Shown here: piece after piece, positions 1-6,249 of the stretch | How the letters are laid out: each line of letters opens with the position of its first letter | Numbering within the stretch: the stretch's first letter is position 1 | Origin: a virus | Lineage: Duplodnaviria > Heunggongvirae > Uroviricota > Caudoviricetes | Reading direction: 5' to 3' (one strand) | DNA length: 6,249 nt | Virus record (IMG/VR): IMGVR_UViG_2675903336_000006 | Translations under genes and position numbers: made by a program | Notes under the pieces: generated by a model | Database searches by the model: none | Told to the model about the DNA's origin: nothing | What the model saw: the letters and a program-made list of their open reading frames with translations, nothing else

Positions 1-72
1 GGGAAAAATATCATCAGATGGCTGCTTAAAAAAAGAACAAATGGTAGTGTCCGCTATTGCCAGTACACCTCA
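1..72. repeat. Left arm of a perfect 72-bp inverted repeat coinciding exactly with the window start (partner 6178..6249)
   Basis: Reverse complement of 6178..6249 equals 1..72 base for base; identity ends at position 73 (t here, g in the partner). Confidence 0.9.
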
Positions 73-271
73 TCCATCACCGAAAAAAATTGGCTTTTAC
101 ACCATTGGCGATAAAAGCATTTACCTGTATGACCTACGCCGCATGGATGAAATCATGGAGGCTCTTGATAATCGTTCGTCGATGGATTGGTGTGTTGCTG
201 TTCATGATATGAATGCAGGGTTTGATGAAAAGATTTTGTTCCCCTCATCAGTTGAAAGCACTGCGGGTTAA
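41..271 (+). CDS. Hypothetical protein, 76 aa; frame is open to the window start so the true start may lie upstream
   Basis: ORF in track; TAA stop at 269-271 is followed immediately by AAGGAG (270-275) and the ATG of the next ORF, an operon-like arrangement. No recognisable family. Confidence 0.4.
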   Translation: MVVSAIASTPHPSPKKIGFYTIGDKSIYLYDLRRMDEIMEALDNRSSMDWCVAVHDMNAGFDEKILFPSSVESTAG

Positions 272-281
272 GGAGTAACAC

Positions 282-449
282 ATGACCACTATTACCAAAG
301 AACGTATTGAATTGTTCATTAAAAACCCGCTTGAAAACGGGCTTACCCGTGGTGAACAAATGGAACTGGCACGGATTGCGCTGGCATCGCTGGAAGCAGA
401 GCCGGTTGTGTTCTGGTTTGAAAAATATCAAGAAGGGGCTACGGCATGA
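282..449 (+). CDS. Hypothetical small protein, 55 aa ([55 protein letters not shown])
   Basis: Not in the ORF track (below size cut-off). Strong SD AAGGAG 270-275 with 6-nt spacer to ATG 282; stop TGA 447-449 overlaps the ATG 446-448 of the next ORF (ATGA coupling); N-terminus and an IAL-SL-AEP motif resemble the downstream ORF. Confidence 0.45.
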
Positions 450-790
450 CGACTTTTACCAGAGAGCAGTTAATAGCTCACGCAGAGGAGACTATTGAAG
501 CACAGAGACTGTGCATACCGGGCACAATCGACCATGACATCATCCGCACATATAAGATGGATATTGCTGTTCTGGAAATCGCACTGGTATCGCTGGCAGC
601 AGAGCCAGCCGGTAAATTGCATGAATACAAACCAGTGGGATATCAGCGTCTGGTCGATGAGTTAACCATGCTGGTAAAGCAGTTAACCTGGCAACTGAGG
701 AAAGCGAAGCCAGACTGCAAATTACCGGATAAGGCGATGAGTTATCTGGAGCGGAACGGACTGATAAGCGTGGAGGATATTTTACGATGA
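446..790 (+). CDS. Hypothetical protein, 114 aa, paralogous at its N-terminus to the 55-aa ORF upstream
   Basis: ORF in track; start overlaps the upstream stop (ATGA); shares MTTxT(K/R)E start and [10 protein letters not shown] vs [10 protein letters not shown] with ORF 282..449, including a near-identical ~26-nt stretch (380-405 vs 580-605). Confidence 0.5.
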
Positions 791-870
791 CCTGGCCTGA
801 AGCATTAACAACGGTAGGAATTGCGATGGCGGTGGCGCTGGTGGTGTATTCGATTTGCCGCTGGGGATAA
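787..870 (+). CDS. Possible 27-aa hydrophobic peptide ([27 protein letters not shown])
   Basis: ATG 787-789 overlaps TGA 788-790 of the upstream ORF (ATGA coupling); encodes one predicted membrane-spanning segment; too small to prove from sequence alone. Confidence 0.25.
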
Positions 871-876
871 AAACGG

Positions 877-905
877 TTTGCGGGAAAAGGAGAGTTAAGT
901 AGAAT
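877..905 (+). promoter_or_regulatory. Candidate sigma70 promoter of the hok transcript (-35 TTGCGG 878-883, -10 TAGAAT 900-905)
   Basis: TAGAAT -10 with 16-nt spacer; predicted +1 (about 910-912) places GGGUGCUUGAGGCU at the mRNA 5' end, resembling the conserved 5' leader of hok mRNAs as I recall it. Confidence 0.35.
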
Positions 906-1081
906 TGCAGCGGGTGCTTGAGGCTATCTGTCTCAGGCATGAACACCAAAAGGCAGATAGAGAAAAGCCCCAGTTAACATTACGCGTCCGGCAAGACGCT
1001 TAACATTAATCTGAGGCTCAATCTATGAACGGCAAATCTAGGTTAGCCTCTTACGTGCCGAAAGGCAAGGAGAAGCAGGCT

Positions 1082-1237
1082 ATGAAGCAGCAAAAGGCGA
1101 TGTTAATCGCCCTGATCGTCATCTGTTTAACCGTCATAGTGACGGCACTGGTAACGAGGAAAGACCTCTGCGAGGTACGAATTCGAACCGGCCAGACGGA
1201 GGTCGCTGTCTTCACAGCTTACGAACCTGAGGAGTAA
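1082..1237 (+). CDS. hokD: Hok/Gef-family type I toxin (small membrane-damaging peptide), 51 aa; an in-frame upstream ATG at 1025 gives a 70-codon mok-like frame
   Basis: Translation MKQQKAMLIALIVICLTVIVTALVTRKDLCEVRIRTGQTEVAVFTAYEPEE: N-terminal TM helix plus the RKDLCEV...TEVAVFTAYE core of Hok/Gef peptides; matches my memory of E. coli HokD (RelF). Flanked by leader and terminator structures typical of hok loci. Confidence 0.8.
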   Translation: MKQQKAMLIALIVICLTVIVTALVTRKDLCEVRIRTGQTEVAVFTAYEPEE

Positions 1238-1307
1238 GAGACCAGGCGGGGGAGAAATCCCTCGCCACCTCTGATGGGTCAGGCATCCTCAATGCACCCA
1301 CACTTAA

Positions 1308-1332
1308 CCCGCTTCGGCGGGTTTTTGTTTTT
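1308..1332 (+). terminator. Rho-independent terminator ending the hok transcript
   Basis: CCCGC(1308-1312)-TTCG-GCGGG(1317-1321) stem-loop followed by TTTTTGTTTTT. Confidence 0.6.
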
Positions 1333-1345
1333 ATTTTCAACGCGT

Positions 1346-1375
1346 TTGAAGTTTTAGATGGTGCCGGAATAGAAT
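1346..1375 (+). promoter_or_regulatory. Candidate sigma70 promoter (-35 TTGAAG 1346-1351, -10 TAGAAT 1370-1375, 18-nt spacer)
   Basis: Hexamers close to consensus just downstream of the hok terminator and ~80 nt upstream of the next ORF. Confidence 0.3.
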
Positions 1376-1457
1376 CAAAAATACTTAAGTAGCGCGCAGG
1401 GAGAAGAGGGATGGACCCCGAACAGGGGAGTGCTATTTATCTGGAAGGATTCTGTTG

Positions 1458-1739
1458 ATGAAAATCGAAGAATTACGTGAAATTTTTAGTGAAGATGGCC
1501 TCTATACTGTGCGCGTTGAGAATGGCGCTATTGTCAGCCACTGCCTTCCAGACTACACAATTCTGATAATTCAGCCGTCTTTGCCAGCAGGCACGGGCGG
1601 CGCTCTCACGCATTTAAATCTGATTGGTACCAGCATCCCCCATGCACTGAAGAACAGGCCGAATGGCTCATTCAGTGTTACCGCAGGCGCGGATGCGAGG
1701 TTAAAAAAGCCCTTAGCCTCGACTACCGTCACTGGATAA
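1458..1739 (+). CDS. Hypothetical small protein (93 aa from ATG 1458); sits where rem lies in Qin-type prophages
   Basis: ORF in track (TTG 1455 / ATG 1458); SD-like GGAAGGA 1444-1450 with 7-nt spacer. C-terminal half is low-complexity, so the true extent is uncertain. Not recognised by sequence. Confidence 0.35.
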   Translation: MKIEELREIFSEDGLYTVRVENGAIVSHCLPDYTILIIQPSLPAGTGGALTHLNLIGTSIPHALKNRPNGSFSVTAGADARLKKPLASTTVTG

Positions 1740-1814
1740 TCTCCGTCAGGCTCCCTTACTCCGAACGGCCAACGCGTCCGTCCCGCACATTCCAGCAACG
1801 GATCTGGAGGTAAT

Positions 1815-2873
1815 GTGCGGGTATTACTTCGACCTGTTCTGGTACCGGAACTCGGTCTGGTTATCGTTAAGCCAGGCCGTGAATCAATGTCAGCATTCCA
1901 TAACGGCAGAATACTGGTGGAGCCGGAACCAAAAAGCATGCGTAATCTGCCGTCCGGGGTCGTTCCTGCCGCTCGCCAGCCGCTGGTGGAAGACAAAACA
2001 TTGCTGCCGTTTTTCAGTAACGCACGGGTGATTCGTGCTGCTGGTGGTGCTGGTGCATTGTCTGACTGGCTGTTGCGCCATATTAAATCCTGCCAGTGGC
2101 CACACGGCGATTATCATCACAGCGAAACCGTCATTCACCGTTATGGTACCGGCGCAATGGTGTTGTGCTGGCACTGCGACAACCAGCTGCGTGACCAGAC
2201 ATCCGAATCACTCGAGCAACTTGCTCATCAAAACCTGTCAGCATGGATGATTGACGTCATCGGTCACGCAATAAGCGGTACGCAGGAGCGTGAATTATCT
2301 CTGGCTGAATTATCCTGGTGGGCGGTCCGCAATCAGGTGGCGGACGCGCTACCGGAAGCGGTATTACGTCGTTCGCTGGGGTTGCGTGCGGAAAAAATTC
2401 GCTCTGTGTACAGTGAAAGCGACATCATACCGGGAGAGCAGACAGCCACCAGCATACTGAAGCAGCGCACAAAAAATATTGCGTTACTGCCTCACGTCCA
2501 CCAGCAACAGAACCCACCACAGGAAAAGACGGTGGTCAGCATTGCCGTTGATCCGGAGTCACCGGCTCAGTATCTCCAGCGCCAGAAATCACAACGGGAA
2601 GAGATGCCTGTATACACGCGCTGGGTAAAAACGCAGAAATGCATGACGTGTGGCAATCAGGCAGATGATCCGCATCACATCATTGGTCATGGACTGGGAG
2701 GGATGGGAACAAAGGCTGATGATTTGTTTGTTATTCCGTTATGCCGTAAATGCCGTAACGAACTACATGCCGGAGTAAAAGATTTTGAAGAGAAACACGG
2801 CAGTCAGCTGTTGTTGCTGATTCGTTTTTTAATGCACGCGAGAAATTCGGGTGTTCTGAAGTGGAAAGCATAA
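1815..2873 (+). CDS. DUF968/YdfU-like prophage protein with C-terminal HNH-like Cys/His motif; start uncertain (GTG 1815 after GGAGG 1806-1810, or in-frame ATG 1887 or 1938)
   Basis: Long ORF immediately upstream of and abutting rusA (TAA 2871-2873, ATG 2874); C-terminus CMTCGNQADDPHHIIGHG...LCRKCRNELH = CxxC..HH..CxxC..H. Family assignment is from context and memory of the YdfU position next to Q in the Qin prophage. Confidence 0.65.
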   Translation: MRVLLRPVLVPELGLVIVKPGRESMSAFHNGRILVEPEPKSMRNLPSGVVPAARQPLVEDKTLLPFFSNARVIRAAGGAGALSDWLLRHIKSCQWPHGDYHHSETVIHRYGTGAMVLCWHCDNQLRDQTSESLEQLAHQNLSAWMIDVIGHAISGTQERELSLAELSWWAVRNQVADALPEAVLRRSLGLRAEKIRSVYSESDIIPGEQTATSILKQRTKNIALLPHVHQQQNPPQEKTVVSIAVDPESPAQYLQRQKSQREEMPVYTRWVKTQKCMTCGNQADDPHHIIGHGLGGMGTKADDLFVIPLCRKCRNELHAGVKDFEEKHGSQLLLLIRFLMHARNSGVLKWKA

Positions 2874-3254
2874 ATGACCGAGCGCATAGAATTTGTTTTA
2901 CCTTACCCGCCGACGGTGAACACTTACTGGCGTCGTCGTGGCAGCACATATTTTGTATCAAAAGCCGGGGAGCGTTATCGCCGGGCAGTGGCGCTTATTG
3001 TTCGCCAGCAGCGGCTGAAATTAAGCCTGTCCGGAAGGTTGGCAATAAAAATTATTGCAGAACCACCGGATAAGCGCCGCCGTGACCTGGACAATATTCT
3101 GAAAGCGCCGCTGGATGCGCTGACGCATGCGGGGTTGCTAATGGACGATGAGCAGTTTGATGAAATCAATATCGTTCGTGCTCAGCCAGTATCTGGTGGA
3201 CGTCTGGGGGTGAAGATTTATCCCATAATGCTTGAAGGGCAGGTCAAAAAATGA
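2874..3254 (+). CDS. rusA: RusA-family Holliday junction resolvase
   Basis: 126 aa; LPYPPTVNTYWRRRG, PDKRRRDLDNILKAPLDALTHAGLLMDDEQ and GGRL closely parallel E. coli RusA (LPWPPSNNRYY..., [30 protein letters not shown], GGRL) as I recall it; SD GGAAAG upstream; stop overlaps the Q start. Confidence 0.85.
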   Translation: MTERIEFVLPYPPTVNTYWRRRGSTYFVSKAGERYRRAVALIVRQQRLKLSLSGRLAIKIIAEPPDKRRRDLDNILKAPLDALTHAGLLMDDEQFDEINIVRAQPVSGGRLGVKIYPIMLEGQVKK

Positions 3255-4072
3255 AACTGGAAGATTTACCGAAATACTACTCCCCAAAATCCCCCGGCCT
3301 GACTGATGCATCGGCCTCAACGTCGAAAGATGCGCTGAGTATCACTGATGTGATGGCCGCGCAGGGCATGACACAGAATCGGGCTGAGATGGGGGTTTCT
3401 GCGTTCCTTGGGAAAATGGGCATTAGTATGAATGACAGAGAGCGGGCAACAGAATTGCTGACAGAATATGCACTCAGTCGGTGTGATCGCGTGGCGGCGT
3501 TAAGAAAACTCCCGGCAGAAATAAAACCGGCAGTGATGCGTATTATGGCTTCGTATGCGTTTGAAGATTATGCCCGTAGCGCGGCGAGCAAAAAACAGTG
3601 CCCCTGCTGTCACGGAAAAAAATTTATTGAAAGCGAGGTTTTTACAAACAAGATCCAGTATCCGGATGGTAAGCCGCCGGTATGGGCAAAGTGTACGAAA
3701 GGTGTGTATCCGTCTTACTGGGAAGAATGGAAAAAAGTCAGGGAGGTGGTAAAAGTTGCCTGTCCGGAGTGTGGCGGAAAGGGTGAGGTTTCCACCGCCT
3801 GTAAGGATTGCCGTGGGCGTGGTGTCGCCATTCATCGTGAAGAGTCGGTAAAACGTGGTATGCCTGTTATCAGAGACTGCCAGCGTTGTGGTGGTCGTGG
3901 CTATGAAAGACTACCATCAACGGAGGCATTTAATGCTATATGCGAGGTGACAAACCAGATAACACGCGCGTCATGGGAAAAAACAGTTAAGAAATTTTAT
4001 GATGCGCTGGTGACCCGGTTTGATATTGAAGAAGCATGGGCTGAGCGGCAGTTAAAAAAGGTAACTAGGTAA
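3251..4072 (+). CDS. Q: Lambda-family late-gene antiterminator Q, 273 aa, with an extra Cys-rich insertion
   Basis: Blocks matching my memory of lambda Q: YSPKSPGLTDASASTSKDALSITDVMAAQGM vs HSPKSPMMSDSPRATASDSLSGTDVMAAMGM; ASYAFEDYARSAAS vs ATFAYADYCRSAAT; CKDCRGRG / CQRCGGRGYERLP vs CRDCHGTG / CGRCKGVGYSRMP; C-terminal TVKKFYDALV...VTR vs TVKPLYDALV...VTR. Followed at once by a pR'-like promoter. Confidence 0.8.
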   Translation: MKLEDLPKYYSPKSPGLTDASASTSKDALSITDVMAAQGMTQNRAEMGVSAFLGKMGISMNDRERATELLTEYALSRCDRVAALRKLPAEIKPAVMRIMASYAFEDYARSAASKKQCPCCHGKKFIESEVFTNKIQYPDGKPPVWAKCTKGVYPSYWEEWKKVREVVKVACPECGGKGEVSTACKDCRGRGVAIHREESVKRGMPVIRDCQRCGGRGYERLPSTEAFNAICEVTNQITRASWEKTVKKFYDALVTRFDIEEAWAERQLKKVTR

Positions 4073-4077
4073 CAAGG

Positions 4078-4120
4078 TTGATTTTTCCGGAATCTGTGGT
4101 AAATTCGTCATAACGATGGG
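4078..4120 (+). promoter_or_regulatory. Late promoter pR' with qut-type pause element (-35 TTGATT 4078-4083, extended -10 TGgTAAATT 4097-4105, AACGATGGG 4112-4120)
   Basis: Six nt after Q stop; -10 TAAATT identical to lambda pR'; AACGATGGG sits 6 nt after the -10 exactly as in lambda pR' (TAAATT-TGACTC-AACGATGGG), where AACGAT is the sigma-dependent pause signal. Confidence 0.6.
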
Positions 4121-4154
4121 CGTTTTATGCCTGACGTTAGAAGAGTTTCTACAA

Positions 4155-4176
4155 CCCGCCGCCGAGCGGGTTTTTT
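4155..4176 (+). terminator. tR'-like rho-independent terminator downstream of pR'
   Basis: CCCGC(4155-4159)-CGCCGA-GCGGG(4166-4170) followed by TTTTTT(4171-4176); about 65 nt from the predicted +1. Confidence 0.55.
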
Positions 4177-4296
4177 ATGACTGAAATCGCGTCAGTACAG
4201 TAAACGCGCTGGTGGCGGTGAATACCTGTCTTTCAGCTTGCTGGCTTTTTCGACAAGAGTTATTGGTGTGTCACGTTAACCGGAAAAGGAAAAGAC

Positions 4297-4494
4297 ATGC
4301 TAAAACAGCAGGATATGACAGAAACCGCCAGAGTGGTGTTTAATGAATTAAGCGTTACCGAACCGGCGACAGTCGGGGAGATAGCGCAGAATACTTACCT
4401 TTCACGCGAACGCTGCCAGTTAATACTGACCCAGCTGGTTATGGCGGGTCTGGCAGACTATCAGTTCGGTTGTTACAGACGCCTTCCGCAGTGA
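4297..4494 (+). CDS. Small hypothetical protein, 65 aa, with helix-turn-helix-like segment (ATVGEIAQNTYLSRERCQLILTQLVMAGL)
   Basis: ORF in track; purine-rich SD-like AAAAGGAAAAG before ATG; stop codon sits in the loop of a terminator hairpin. First ORF downstream of tR'. Confidence 0.45.
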   Translation: MLKQQDMTETARVVFNELSVTEPATVGEIAQNTYLSRERCQLILTQLVMAGLADYQFGCYRRLPQ

Positions 4495-4504
4495 AGGCTT
4501 TTTT
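4481..4504 (+). terminator. Rho-independent terminator overlapping the stop of ORF 4297..4494
   Basis: GCCTTC(4481-4486)-CGCAGT-GAAGGC(4493-4498) followed by TTTTTT; stop TGA 4492-4494 lies in the loop. Confidence 0.55.
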
Positions 4505-4522
4505 ATTTGTGGTAAATGGGCG

Positions 4523-4551
4523 GCTGGTGGGTGTTAGGGGCACCCACCAGC
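4523..4551. repeat. Perfect 11-bp inverted repeat (hairpin) whose arms are Chi and complement-Chi
   Basis: GCTGGTGGGTG (4523-4533), 7-nt loop TTAGGGG, CACCCACCAGC (4541-4551); no U-run follows, so not a classic terminator. Confidence 0.6.
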
Positions 4552-4626
4552 CATCTGCTCATGCGTTGGGTTCACAAGCAAACCTCAGGCCCACTGCTTT
4601 GCGCAAAAGCAGAATGAGCCTATCAG

Positions 4627-4891
4627 NNNNNNNNNNNNNNNNNNNNNNNNNNNNNNNNNNNNNNNNNNNNNNNNNNNNNNNNNNNNNNNNNNNNNNNNNN
4701 NNNNNNNNNNNNNNNNNNNNNNNNNNNNNNNNNNNNNNNNNNNNNNNNNNNNNNNNNNNNNNNNNNNNNNNNNNNNNNNNNNNNNNNNNNNNNNNNNNNN
4801 NNNNNNNNNNNNNNNNNNNNNNNNNNNNNNNNNNNNNNNNNNNNNNNNNNNNNNNNNNNNNNNNNNNNNNNNNNNNNNNNNNNNNNNNNNN
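4627..4891. other. Run of 265 N (masked or unsequenced gap)
   Basis: Direct observation; all ORFs crossing it in the track are artefacts of translating N as X. Confidence 0.99.
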
Positions 4892-4892
4892 A

Positions 4893-5420
4893 AAACAGAT
4901 TGCAGATGCCACAGGAAAGAAAAACATGGTGTCGCACTGGTTCAGTGCCGGTCAGTGGCAGTTGCCGAATGAAAGCGATTATCTGAAATTACAGGCGCTG
5001 TTTGCCCGGGTGGCAGAAGAGAAGCATCGGCGTGGTGAACTGGAAAAGCTCCACCACCAGCTGGTGGATACGTATACCTCACTGAACCGGCAGTATGCGG
5101 AGCTGCTGAGTGAATATAAACATCTGCGGCGGTATTTTGGCGTGACGGTGCAGGTGCCGTATACCGATGTGTGGACGCATAAACCGGTGCAGTTCTATCC
5201 CGGGAAACATCCGTGCGAAAAACCGGCAGAAATGCTGCAGCAGATAATCAGCGCTAGCAGTCGTCCGGGTGACCTGATTGCAGATTTTTTCATGGGGTTG
5301 GGTTCGACAGTGAAAGCGGCACTGGCGCTCGGGCGTCGTGCAATTGGCGTTGAGCTGGAGACTGAACGTTTTGAGCAGACGGTTCGGGAAGTACAGGATT
5401 TAGTCAGCCAGAACGGATGA
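4893..5420 (+). CDS. Beta-class N6-adenine/N4-cytosine DNA methyltransferase, C-terminal portion (5' end lost in the N gap; internal ATG 4926 with SD AGGA 4913-4916 is an alternative start)
   Basis: HPCEKPAEMLQQIISASSRPGDLIADFFMGLGSTVKAALALGRRAIGVELE matches the HPxxKP...D-FxGSGTT...GR-xIGIE C-terminal signature of N6_N4 MTases (CcrM-like), from memory. The catalytic DPPY motif is not in the visible part. Confidence 0.7.
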   Translation, partial: KQIADATGKKNMVSHWFSAGQWQLPNESDYLKLQALFARVAEEKHRRGELEKLHHQLVDTYTSLNRQYAELLSEYKHLRRYFGVTVQVPYTDVWTHKPVQFYPGKHPCEKPAEMLQQIISASSRPGDLIADFFMGLGSTVKAALALGRRAIGVELETERFEQTVREVQDLVSQNG

Positions 5421-5460
5421 TATTGAAGAATTAATTACGCGTCGTTATTATGCGGCTCCC

Positions 5461-5536
5461 GGCCCTTTAGCTCAGTGGTGAGAGCGAGCGACTCATAATC
5501 GCCAGGTCGCTGGTTCAAATCCAGCAAGGGCCACCA
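5461..5536 (+). tRNA. tRNA with CAU anticodon, most like tRNA-Ile2 (lysidine-modified; ileX/ileZ-like)
   Basis: 76 nt folds as cloverleaf: acceptor GGCCCTT/AAGGGCC, D-stem GCTC/GAGC, anticodon loop CTCATAA, T-arm GCTGG-TTCAAAT-CCAGC, discriminator A, encoded CCA; overall close to E. coli ileX as I recall it. Confidence 0.85.
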
Positions 5537-5543
5537 TCACATA

Positions 5544-5577
5544 CCGCCATTAGCTCATCAGGAAAGAGCGCCAGCCT
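5544..5577 (+). tRNA. Probable 5' part of a second tRNA, cut by the N gap
   Basis: 7 nt after the first tRNA: TA-GCTC-(D-loop)-GAGC-G-CCAGC fits positions 8-31 of a tRNA; rest masked, so identity cannot be determined. Confidence 0.3.
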
Positions 5578-5845
5578 NNNNNNNNNNNNNNNNNNNNNNN
5601 NNNNNNNNNNNNNNNNNNNNNNNNNNNNNNNNNNNNNNNNNNNNNNNNNNNNNNNNNNNNNNNNNNNNNNNNNNNNNNNNNNNNNNNNNNNNNNNNNNNN
5701 NNNNNNNNNNNNNNNNNNNNNNNNNNNNNNNNNNNNNNNNNNNNNNNNNNNNNNNNNNNNNNNNNNNNNNNNNNNNNNNNNNNNNNNNNNNNNNNNNNNN
5801 NNNNNNNNNNNNNNNNNNNNNNNNNNNNNNNNNNNNNNNNNNNNN
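5578..5845. other. Run of 268 N (masked or unsequenced gap)
   Basis: Direct observation. Confidence 0.99.
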
Positions 5846-5970
5846 GAATCCCCCTGTGCGGAGGGGCAATCAGCGAGTAGGTATATGGGATAATCGCGGA
5901 TTCAGGTGCTGGTACTGAATTCACCGGGAGGCACCCGGCATCATGCAATGGCACATAGCGCCACTCTCCA

Positions 5971-5994
5971 GCCCTCTCCGGAGGGGCTTTTCTG
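5971..5994 (+). terminator. Possible rho-independent terminator
   Basis: GC-rich imperfect hairpin GCCCTC-TCCG-GAGGGGC (one bulged G) followed by TTTTCTG; T-run on + strand only. Confidence 0.3.
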
Positions 5995-6177
5995 TGCCGG
6001 ATACATCACAGTTTCTGGAACCTTAGGTACTACAGTATCAGTCAGGGTGCTATATTTTCAGATGTGATGAAAGCCTGTCAGCAGGCAGGGCGTATCGGAA
6101 ATGACCCAGTAGAGAAAACGTTGACTCAGATACCGGTGCTGAGTTACCGGGAAACCGGCATCACATGACCGCTATCC

Positions 6178-6249
6178 TGAGGTGTACTGGCAATAGCGGA
6201 CACTACCATTTGTTCTTTTTTTAAGCAGCCATCTGATGATATTTTTCCC
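6178..6249. repeat. Right arm of the perfect 72-bp terminal inverted repeat (partner 1..72)
   Basis: Exact reverse complement of 1..72; on the minus strand it reproduces the start region and first 10 codons of ORF 41..271, then diverges into a 21-codon frame. Confidence 0.9.

Follow-up and report, generated by a model that had tools for sequence, protein, structure and literature searches.

What lies behind the late antiterminator gene Q of a lambdoid prophage that has no Shiga toxin genes, and is it whole? The question is raised by a stretch of 6,249 nt of viral DNA (Caudoviricetes; IMG/VR record IMGVR_UViG_2675903336_000006), called the window throughout. A first-pass annotation, made from the letters alone, had noticed the C-terminal part of a DNA methyltransferase (hereafter the methylase) and a tRNA gene downstream of Q, and had likened their arrangement to that of Shiga toxin (Stx)-converting phages. 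Two runs of N, at positions 4627–4891 (265 nt) and 5578–5845 (268 nt), cover the start of the methylase and whatever follows the tRNA gene. We find the same DNA, with the masked parts legible, in complete chromosomes of Shigella sonnei. We conclude that the region between Q and the lysis genes of an stx-less prophage of this species very probably holds two cargo modules, a methylase of the M.EcoGII clade and a cluster of tRNA genes.

Source of the window and the sequence under its gaps

Identical loci were retrieved by an exact-protein look-up with the DUF968 and Q proteins of the window, and then compared by BLAST. The visible segments (1–4626, 4892–5577 and 5846–6249) are 100% identical to about 20 loci on complete S. 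sonnei chromosomes, among them that of strain 53G (HE616528.1). The exact Q protein and the full-length methylase are both named Shigella sonnei by NCBI, each on about 1000 contigs. We read the window as the Q-proximal part of the late region in a degraded S. sonnei prophage, lambdoid in type and without stx. Comparison loci are cited by L-numbers where coordinates are needed; L003 is an S. sonnei locus identical to the window, L017 is S. sonnei 53G and L001 is Escherichia coli O121.

In all the identical genomes the true length under the first N-run is 548 nt, and under the second 245 nt. Because both runs disagree with these genomes, and do so in opposite directions (265 versus 548 nt, 268 versus 245 nt), their size is uninformative, and we rejected the N-run lengths as true distances. 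The elements named in the first-pass annotation are all present where it placed them, with scores well beyond chance. The features of the late region, with the content of the gaps as read in the identical genomes, are as follows.

3251–4072, + strand: late antiterminator Q, 273 amino acids (aa); Pfam Antiterm PF03589, E = 1.6e-53; the identical protein carries the database name antitermination protein (Shigella sonnei)
4076–4103, + strand: predicted PR'-like late promoter, TTGATT-16 nt-TAAATT with TG ahead of it, read by eye
4153–4177, + strand: tR'-like intrinsic terminator, a GC hairpin at 4153–4172 (L003 8339–8358) followed by TTTTT
4297–4494, + strand: open reading frame (ORF) of 65 aa, possibly a small winged-helix/helix-turn-helix (HTH) protein; PHROG 331, E = 1.4e-37, and a weak TrmB HTH match, E = 0.0026
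4627–4891, no strand: N-run 1, 265 N; in identical genomes an 18-nt spacer, the methylase ATG and codons 1–177 including VTDPPYF (L003 8813–9360)
4892–5420, + strand: beta-class N6-adenine DNA methyltransferase, visible part (codons 178–352 and stop); Pfam N6_N4_Mtase, M.EcoGII clade
5423–5451, + strand: candidate sigma-70 promoter of the tRNA cluster, TTGAAG-17 nt-TATTAT, which stops 9 nt short of the first tRNA gene (L003 9892–9920)
5461–5536, + strand: tRNA-Ile2 (anticodon CAU, ileZ type); ARAGORN (CAT); Rfam tRNA, 72.5 bits, E = 6e-15
5544–5577, + strand: tRNA-Arg(UCG), argN type, first 34 nt, identical to the unmasked gene at L003 10013–10089
5578–5845, no strand: N-run 2, 268 N; identical genomes have here the remainder of argN, then argO, an intrinsic terminator and 36 nt from the 5' end of an STnc100-family gene (L003 10047–10291)

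A full-length methylase of the M.EcoGII clade

A beta-class DNA methyltransferase had been called within 4893–5577 in the first-pass annotation. In agreement with this, the visible part matches the C-terminal half of Pfam N6_N4_Mtase (PF01555, profile positions 125–219 of 221) with E = 6.4e-23 and 82.3 bits, against a cut-off of 26.7. It comprises 175 residues, where 4893 is codon 178, coding extends to 5417 and the stop codon lies at 5418–5420, and it includes motif I as DFFMGLGST, with FMGLG at approximately 5292–5306. In L003 the ORF is complete (8831–9889, 352 aa). Its ATG is 18 nt past the last visible base, with an in-frame TAA 9 nt upstream, and motif IV is read in the identical genomes as VTDPPYF at residues 33–39 (DPPY at 35–38), which falls under the N-run in the window. 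Thus upstream of 4893 the frame runs on to an ATG through DPPY, and meets neither a stop codon nor unrelated DNA. The motif order, with DPPY N-terminal, the recognition domain central and FxGxG C-terminal, is that of the beta class.

The annotation had left open whether the gene is intact with its start in the gap, or a remnant translated from ATG 4926. The former holds in the identical genomes, the ORF being intact at 352 aa in every one with 100%-identical flanks; ATG 4926 is the internal Met189.

The full-length protein matches DNA methyltransferase PHROGs with E of about 1e-100. Against NCBIfam it gave only sub-threshold matches to the YhdJ-like and CcrM models, and hence no equivalog. Its relatives of solved structure in the PDB are all beta-class, namely M.RsrI, CcrM, MboIIA and DpnA. 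Its identity to the phage 1720a-02 methylase, an enzyme that Murray et al. 2018 named as very similar to M.EcoGII (PMC5778455), is 95%. Comparison with M.EcoGII as printed in the SUPREM supplement (PMC11551740) gives 324 identities in 349 residues (93%), a figure that is approximate because the printed sequence carries machine-reading errors; the first 102 residues are identical. The two proteins also share the beta-class order with a helical recognition domain in the middle, a length of about 350 aa and a prophage location. They differ by about 25 substitutions in the S. sonnei allele, including S313L and S197G, in length (352 versus 349 aa) and in the C-terminal tail. Judged by this close relationship over the full length, the methylase is a member of the M.EcoGII clade.

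M.EcoGII is a non-specific adenine DNA/RNA methyltransferase of E. coli O104:H4 C227-11, which also encodes M.EcoGI (PMC5778455). Its adenine methylation is independent of sequence context. The lysogen does not express it, and constitutive expression is harmful; the proposed role is that induction turns the enzyme on to shield phage DNA from restriction. An AlphaFold description of the enzyme has been published.

A predicted late promoter and the small ORF upstream

In lambdoid phages the late promoter sits just after Q and before a terminator. The placement of the methylase and tRNA after Q and PR' in the annotation is borne out, since Q is followed by a predicted PR'-like promoter and a tR'-like terminator. 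A consensus promoter scan did not pick up PR', because 8 of its 12 hexamer positions match and the threshold of the scan was 9. A second terminator hairpin, at 4481–4498, overlaps the stop codon of the 65-aa ORF. As the methylase lies behind PR'/tR' and this second terminator, it would be silent in the lysogen and made only on antitermination by Q. Such a position fits the picture of expression drawn for M.EcoGII.

The 65-aa ORF immediately precedes the methylase in the E. coli, Stx phage, phiP27, Salmonella, Enterobacter and Photorhabdus loci inspected, at 39–100% identity (homologues include L049 2659–2847, L039 2661–2849 and L080 2700–2897). A role devoted to the methylase, as its regulator or its partner, is possible.

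A variant of motif I in the S. sonnei allele

The methylase was aligned with 54 relatives of 75–98% identity. Motif I is GSG across the clade and GLG in the S. sonnei protein (5295–5303, visible in the window), a change designated S313L; serine is found here in 54 of 54 relatives, and the closest Shigella boydii and E. coli alleles have serine. At residue 197 in the recognition domain (codon at 4947–4949) the S. sonnei protein has glycine where 53 of the 54 have serine. These are the only two positions at which it departs from an otherwise invariant or near-invariant residue. The substitution S313L could signal decay in a dead prophage. We rejected the view that it is necessarily inactivating, since CcrM, an active beta-class enzyme, has valine at the equivalent position (DPFFGVGTT). 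The variant is a possible natural probe of the tolerance of the S-adenosylmethionine-binding loop.

A cluster of three tRNA genes

The tRNA gene at 5461–5536 had been proposed to encode tRNA-Ile2(CAU), and comparison with the CAU tRNAs of E. coli K-12 bears this out. It is identical to ileX at 68 of 76 positions (89%), to metT/metU at 52 of 77 (68%) and to the initiator metZ at 46 of 77. The acceptor stem (GGCCCTT / AAGGGCC) keeps the C4-G69 and C5-G68 pairs as in ileX, where metT has T4 and A5; we take these two pairs to be determinants for TilS. In the anticodon loop the two genes do not differ, and the sole acceptor-stem difference is compensatory (C6-G67 to T6-A67). The phage gene is an extra copy, and it departs from ileX in the uppermost pair of the anticodon stem, which is an A27·C43 mismatch here and G·T in ileX. 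An identical gene is annotated tRNA-Ile in RefSeq, and ileZ in Stx-phage records. From its sequence this tRNA is Ile2 (ileZ) and not Met.

The annotation had also supposed that a second tRNA was masked. The last 34 visible nt before N-run 2 are indeed the start of tRNA-Arg(UCG), and detection in the identical genomes finds two further tRNAs past 5544, this one and a tRNA-Arg(UCU) of the argO type that lies wholly under the N-run (L003 10103–10179; ARAGORN, Rfam). The latter gene is followed by a GC-rich intrinsic terminator (L003 10194–10211, then T8).

In UTI89 and phage 1720a-02 the candidate promoter of the cluster has an identical -10 element, a -35 element one base off (TTGAAG versus TTGCAG) and a different spacer. 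We treat it only as a lead, because promoter-like sites in the region are no more frequent than chance. Within the set of papers searched, nothing relevant on ileZ/argN/argO came up, and the papers found on the Stx region made no mention of the methylase or tRNAs.

Codon usage of the prophage genes

Codons were counted in the early ORFs of the window (41–4494), 15 core genes of K-12 (a small sample), the late-gene sets of 53G and E. coli O121, and the methylase gene. ATA occurs at 13.8 per 1000 codons in the early ORFs, 10.1 and 7.9 in the late sets of 53G and O121 and 11.3 in the methylase, compared with 3.6 in the core genes. For AGA and AGG together the values are 14.6 in the early ORFs, 8.8 (53G) and 14.0 (O121) in the late sets and 1.2 in the core genes; the methylase gene contains neither codon. 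CGA and CGG differ less between the sets, except for CGG in the methylase (25.5 versus 5.7). The three tRNAs decode AUA, CGA/CGG and AGA/AGG, all rare in the host core genes, and of these ATA and AGA/AGG are several-fold commoner in the prophage genes. It is an established idea that phage tRNAs of this kind compensate for differences in codon usage (cited in PMC7946995), and the codon bias found here agrees with it.

Comparison with Stx-converting phages and with other prophages

The DNA from Q to position 6177 of the window has matches in 3928 of the 5426 complete E. coli genomes searched, and in 305 phage records that are mostly Stx-converting. The order of genes after Q in three of the latter is as follows.

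Stx2a_1447: 65-aa ORF, 352-aa methylase, ileZ, argN, argO, stx2A, stx2B
phiP27: 65-aa ORF, methylase, ileZ, argO, stx2e
Phage 1720a-02: as Stx2a_1447, with the three tRNAs ahead of stx2A

The likeness to Stx phages noted in the first-pass annotation is therefore real, with phiP27 lacking argN. Both order and spacing are the same in the Stx-converting phages (Stx2a_1447, 933W-like, phiP27, 1720a-02), where ileZ begins about 40 nt past the methylase and the DNA is 86–94% identical. The window prophage differs in being without stxAB, which in Stx phages begins about 90 nt past argO; here a terminator and small RNA (sRNA) genes of the STnc100 family follow argO. It also has a different allele of Q (Antiterm family, 273 aa), and is a fragment bounded by copies of the insertion sequence (IS) IS600. 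The annotation had further raised the possibility of stx or other cargo under the mask. This is not what the identical genomes hold, which is tRNAs, a terminator and the start of an sRNA gene, and none of those genomes has stxA or stxB between argO and the esterase and holin genes.

The window also matches non-Stx lambdoid prophages of E. coli (UTI89, O121 strain 201805972), which are collinear with it at 93–99% identity over hokD, DUF968, RusA, Q, the small ORF, the methylase, all three tRNA genes and the sRNA region. They differ from the window in running on into esterase, holin, lysozyme and Rz genes, in having no IS600 at 6178 and in having serine at residue 313 of the methylase. The methylase sits between Q/PR'/tR' and a holin-lysozyme cassette on the same strand, with holin downstream in 53G and E. 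coli, as is characteristic of a lambdoid late-region moron.

Linkage of the two modules

A linkage scan with one representative genome per species gave 80 loci of methylase relatives at 61–97% identity. In only 3 of the 80 do tRNAs lie within 700 nt downstream of the methylase, and these are Escherichia albertii and two contigs labelled as metagenome-assembled genomes (MAGs) with a methylase 95–97% identical. Of five loci inspected outside Escherichia (Salmonella, Enterobacter, Photorhabdus, Yersinia and Trabulsiella), four have a gene of the Antiterm or Phage_antitermQ family upstream of the methylase, and in Yersinia none was seen. A homologue of the 65-aa ORF is present in three (Salmonella, Enterobacter and Photorhabdus). 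Four of the loci gave Pfam hits downstream, and in each of these the methylase is followed by holin and/or lysozyme. Because the tRNAs join only Escherichia-type loci of the sample and the S. sonnei genomes, we read the small ORF and methylase as one unit, and the tRNA cluster as a separate insertion. A separate insertion fits the cluster's own terminator and candidate promoter.

Five contigs in the sample carry enterobacterial-type methylase loci under other labels (L030, Proteobacteria MAG; L047, Collinsella; L037, Geobacteraceae MAG; L043, Vagococcus; L051, Chryseobacterium). In two of these the methylase is 95–97% identical to that of S. sonnei, and the same tRNAs come after it. These look like contamination or mis-binning. 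Two loci from other taxa, L051 (2190–2500) and L070 (2214–2450), have another tRNA cluster (Met/Ile-CAU, Thr-UGU, Gly-UCC), placed ahead of the methylase and not behind it. It appears that tRNA morons entered the late region more than once.

A model for the two modules, and its alternatives

We propose that the first module is a conserved two-gene unit of the 65-aa HTH-like ORF and the intact 352-aa methylase. By extension from M.EcoGII, the methylase would methylate adenines of replicating phage DNA with little or no specificity, and this would protect the progeny from restriction systems sensitive to N6-methyladenine. The second module would be the Ile2(CAU), Arg(UCG) and Arg(UCU) cluster with its candidate promoter and own terminator, supplementing translation of the phage late and cargo genes. 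The slot taken by the toxin after argO would here be filled by the terminator and STnc100-family sRNA genes, and then by IS600.

Might the methylase of the source strain be a truncated remnant, with its product made from the internal ATG 4926? Only the C-terminal half is visible, IS elements have brought decay to the surrounding prophage, and N-run 1 is 283 nt shorter than the homologous stretch, which taken literally is an out-of-frame deletion. However, N-run 2 is wrong in length too, in the other direction, and given the intact ORF in all of the approximately 20 loci with identical flanks, and the exact full-length protein on about 1000 contigs named Shigella sonnei, we consider a remnant very unlikely. 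Greater weight belongs to a methylase that is full length yet inactive or altered, with S313L and S197G marking relaxed selection in a dead prophage. The conservation of serine at both positions among the relatives, and the interruption of the prophage by IS600 and IS1, would be in keeping with this. Yet there are just two such substitutions in 352 residues, with no stops or frameshifts, and the position equivalent to 313 tolerates variation, being valine in CcrM and threonine in a Thermus thermophilus homologue. We regard an inactive or altered allele as unlikely on balance, while a real possibility.

Another reading takes the CAU tRNA for an additional elongator tRNA-Met. ARAGORN labels it Met, because the program cannot separate the two CAU classes by anticodon, and some phage records and PMC7946995 also annotate it as tRNA-Met. 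Against this stand its 89% identity to ileX compared with 68% to metT/metU, the ileX anticodon loop and acceptor-stem pairs, and the RefSeq name tRNA-Ile, so that a methionine tRNA is highly improbable. The chance that stx or other protein cargo is hidden in N-run 2 or just past it is next to nil. The toxin operon does begin soon after argO in Stx phages, but a gap of 268 nt is too small for an operon of 1.2 kb, the 245 nt found there in genomes with identical flanks are accounted for by tRNAs, terminator and sRNA start, and what follows in S. sonnei is STnc100 copies, in some genomes IS600, and then an esterase gene (DUF1737/SASA) and holin. A more speculative idea, which we think improbable, is that the module is more than debris, and that S. 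sonnei kept a self-transcribed ileZ-argN-argO cluster in a dead prophage to help translate AT-rich, AUA- and AGA-rich acquired genes such as those of the invasion plasmid, while S313L disarmed or re-tuned the methylase.

Several observations weigh against a module pair that is whole and working, as we propose. The masked sequence is that of identical genomes, and with N-runs of 265 and 268 nt in place of 548 and 245 nt a deletion in the source strain is possible. With IS600 and IS1 interrupting the prophage, Q-dependent induction may no longer occur. The two substitutions at conserved positions could have reduced or abolished methylase activity, and lack of specificity is carried over from an enzyme with about 25 residues different, several of which fall in the target-recognition region. 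Finally, the candidate promoter of the tRNA cluster is a consensus match of a kind found at chance frequency.

The arrangement itself is already known. It is standard late cargo of the Stx type, its proteins are in public databases and the family has been characterised as M.EcoGII. What is mildly new is the placement of this methylase in the M.EcoGII clade, the S313L variant, and the evidence that methylase unit and tRNA cluster are separable. Thousands of Shigella and E. coli entries carry the generic label "site-specific DNA-methyltransferase", which conceals that they belong to the non-specific M.EcoGII clade.

Downstream sRNA genes and IS600 ends

The remaining features lie at the two ends of the window.

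5846–5999, + strand: STnc100-family prophage sRNA gene, visible 3' 154 nt with terminator hairpin; Rfam RF02076, 69.8 bits
6038–6177, + strand: degenerate second STnc100-like copy, cut by IS600; 21.8 bits in the window
1–72, + strand: right-hand end of IS600 (IS3 family), left arm of the terminal inverted repeat; identical to L001 337–408
6178–6249, - strand: right arm of the terminal inverted repeat, formed by the end of another IS600 copy in inverted orientation; 3-bp target duplication TCC

Approximately 330 bp after the second gap had been described as non-coding. There is no protein gene here, as stated, but the segment does hold the 3' part of the STnc100 gene and an IS600 end. The STnc100 match (RF02076) scores 69.8 bits masked and 123.6 bits unmasked, both above the gathering threshold of 47. 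A 2026 preprint ties STnc100 to PasD sRNAs of Stx-type prophages. In S. sonnei 53G a tandem array of three STnc100 copies follows argO, scoring 123.6, 30.1 and 161 bits (L017 8820–9496), and in the lineage of the window IS600 has inserted into the weak middle copy. The 53G locus is uninterrupted, its STnc100-like copies continuing to the DUF1737/SASA esterase gene and then holin.

The terminal inverted repeat of the window is 72 nt long and perfect (100%). We rejected a hairpin assembly artefact and a novel element as its origin, as the two arms are IS600 ends. The match in E. coli O121 (L001 337–408) overlaps a coding sequence annotated as an IS600 family transposase, and in complete S. sonnei chromosomes full IS3-family transposase genes lie just outside both ends of the window in inverted orientation. 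The right-hand copy is an element of about 1264 bp with the ends, the transposase and the 3-bp duplication of IS600. It is polymorphic in S. sonnei, being missing at this site in 53G but found in most of the other complete genomes fetched. The window consists of the unique sequence that separates two inverted IS600 copies, which is what a short-read assembler would deliver.

The early region and the surroundings of the prophage

On the + strand of the window the genes run in the order three small phage ORFs, hok/sok, a DUF968/HNH protein, RusA and the Antiterm-family Q. The hok/sok type I toxin-antitoxin locus is complete at 912–1237 (sok RNA, 112 bits; Hok Pfam match, E = 3e-23). A weak isrK-like match of 25.7 bits, below threshold, lies at 1246–1327 over the apparent hok terminator.

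In L003 (200–4258) the prophage remnant adjoins ompW, a known lambdoid attachment region (compare the phage record name Stx2_12E129_PPompW). The left part of this locus (DUF4014, IS1, DUF977) is on the strand opposite to the Q region, whereas in E. coli O121 DUF977 is co-oriented with Q. This difference points to an inversion mediated by IS elements, or to two remnants having been joined.

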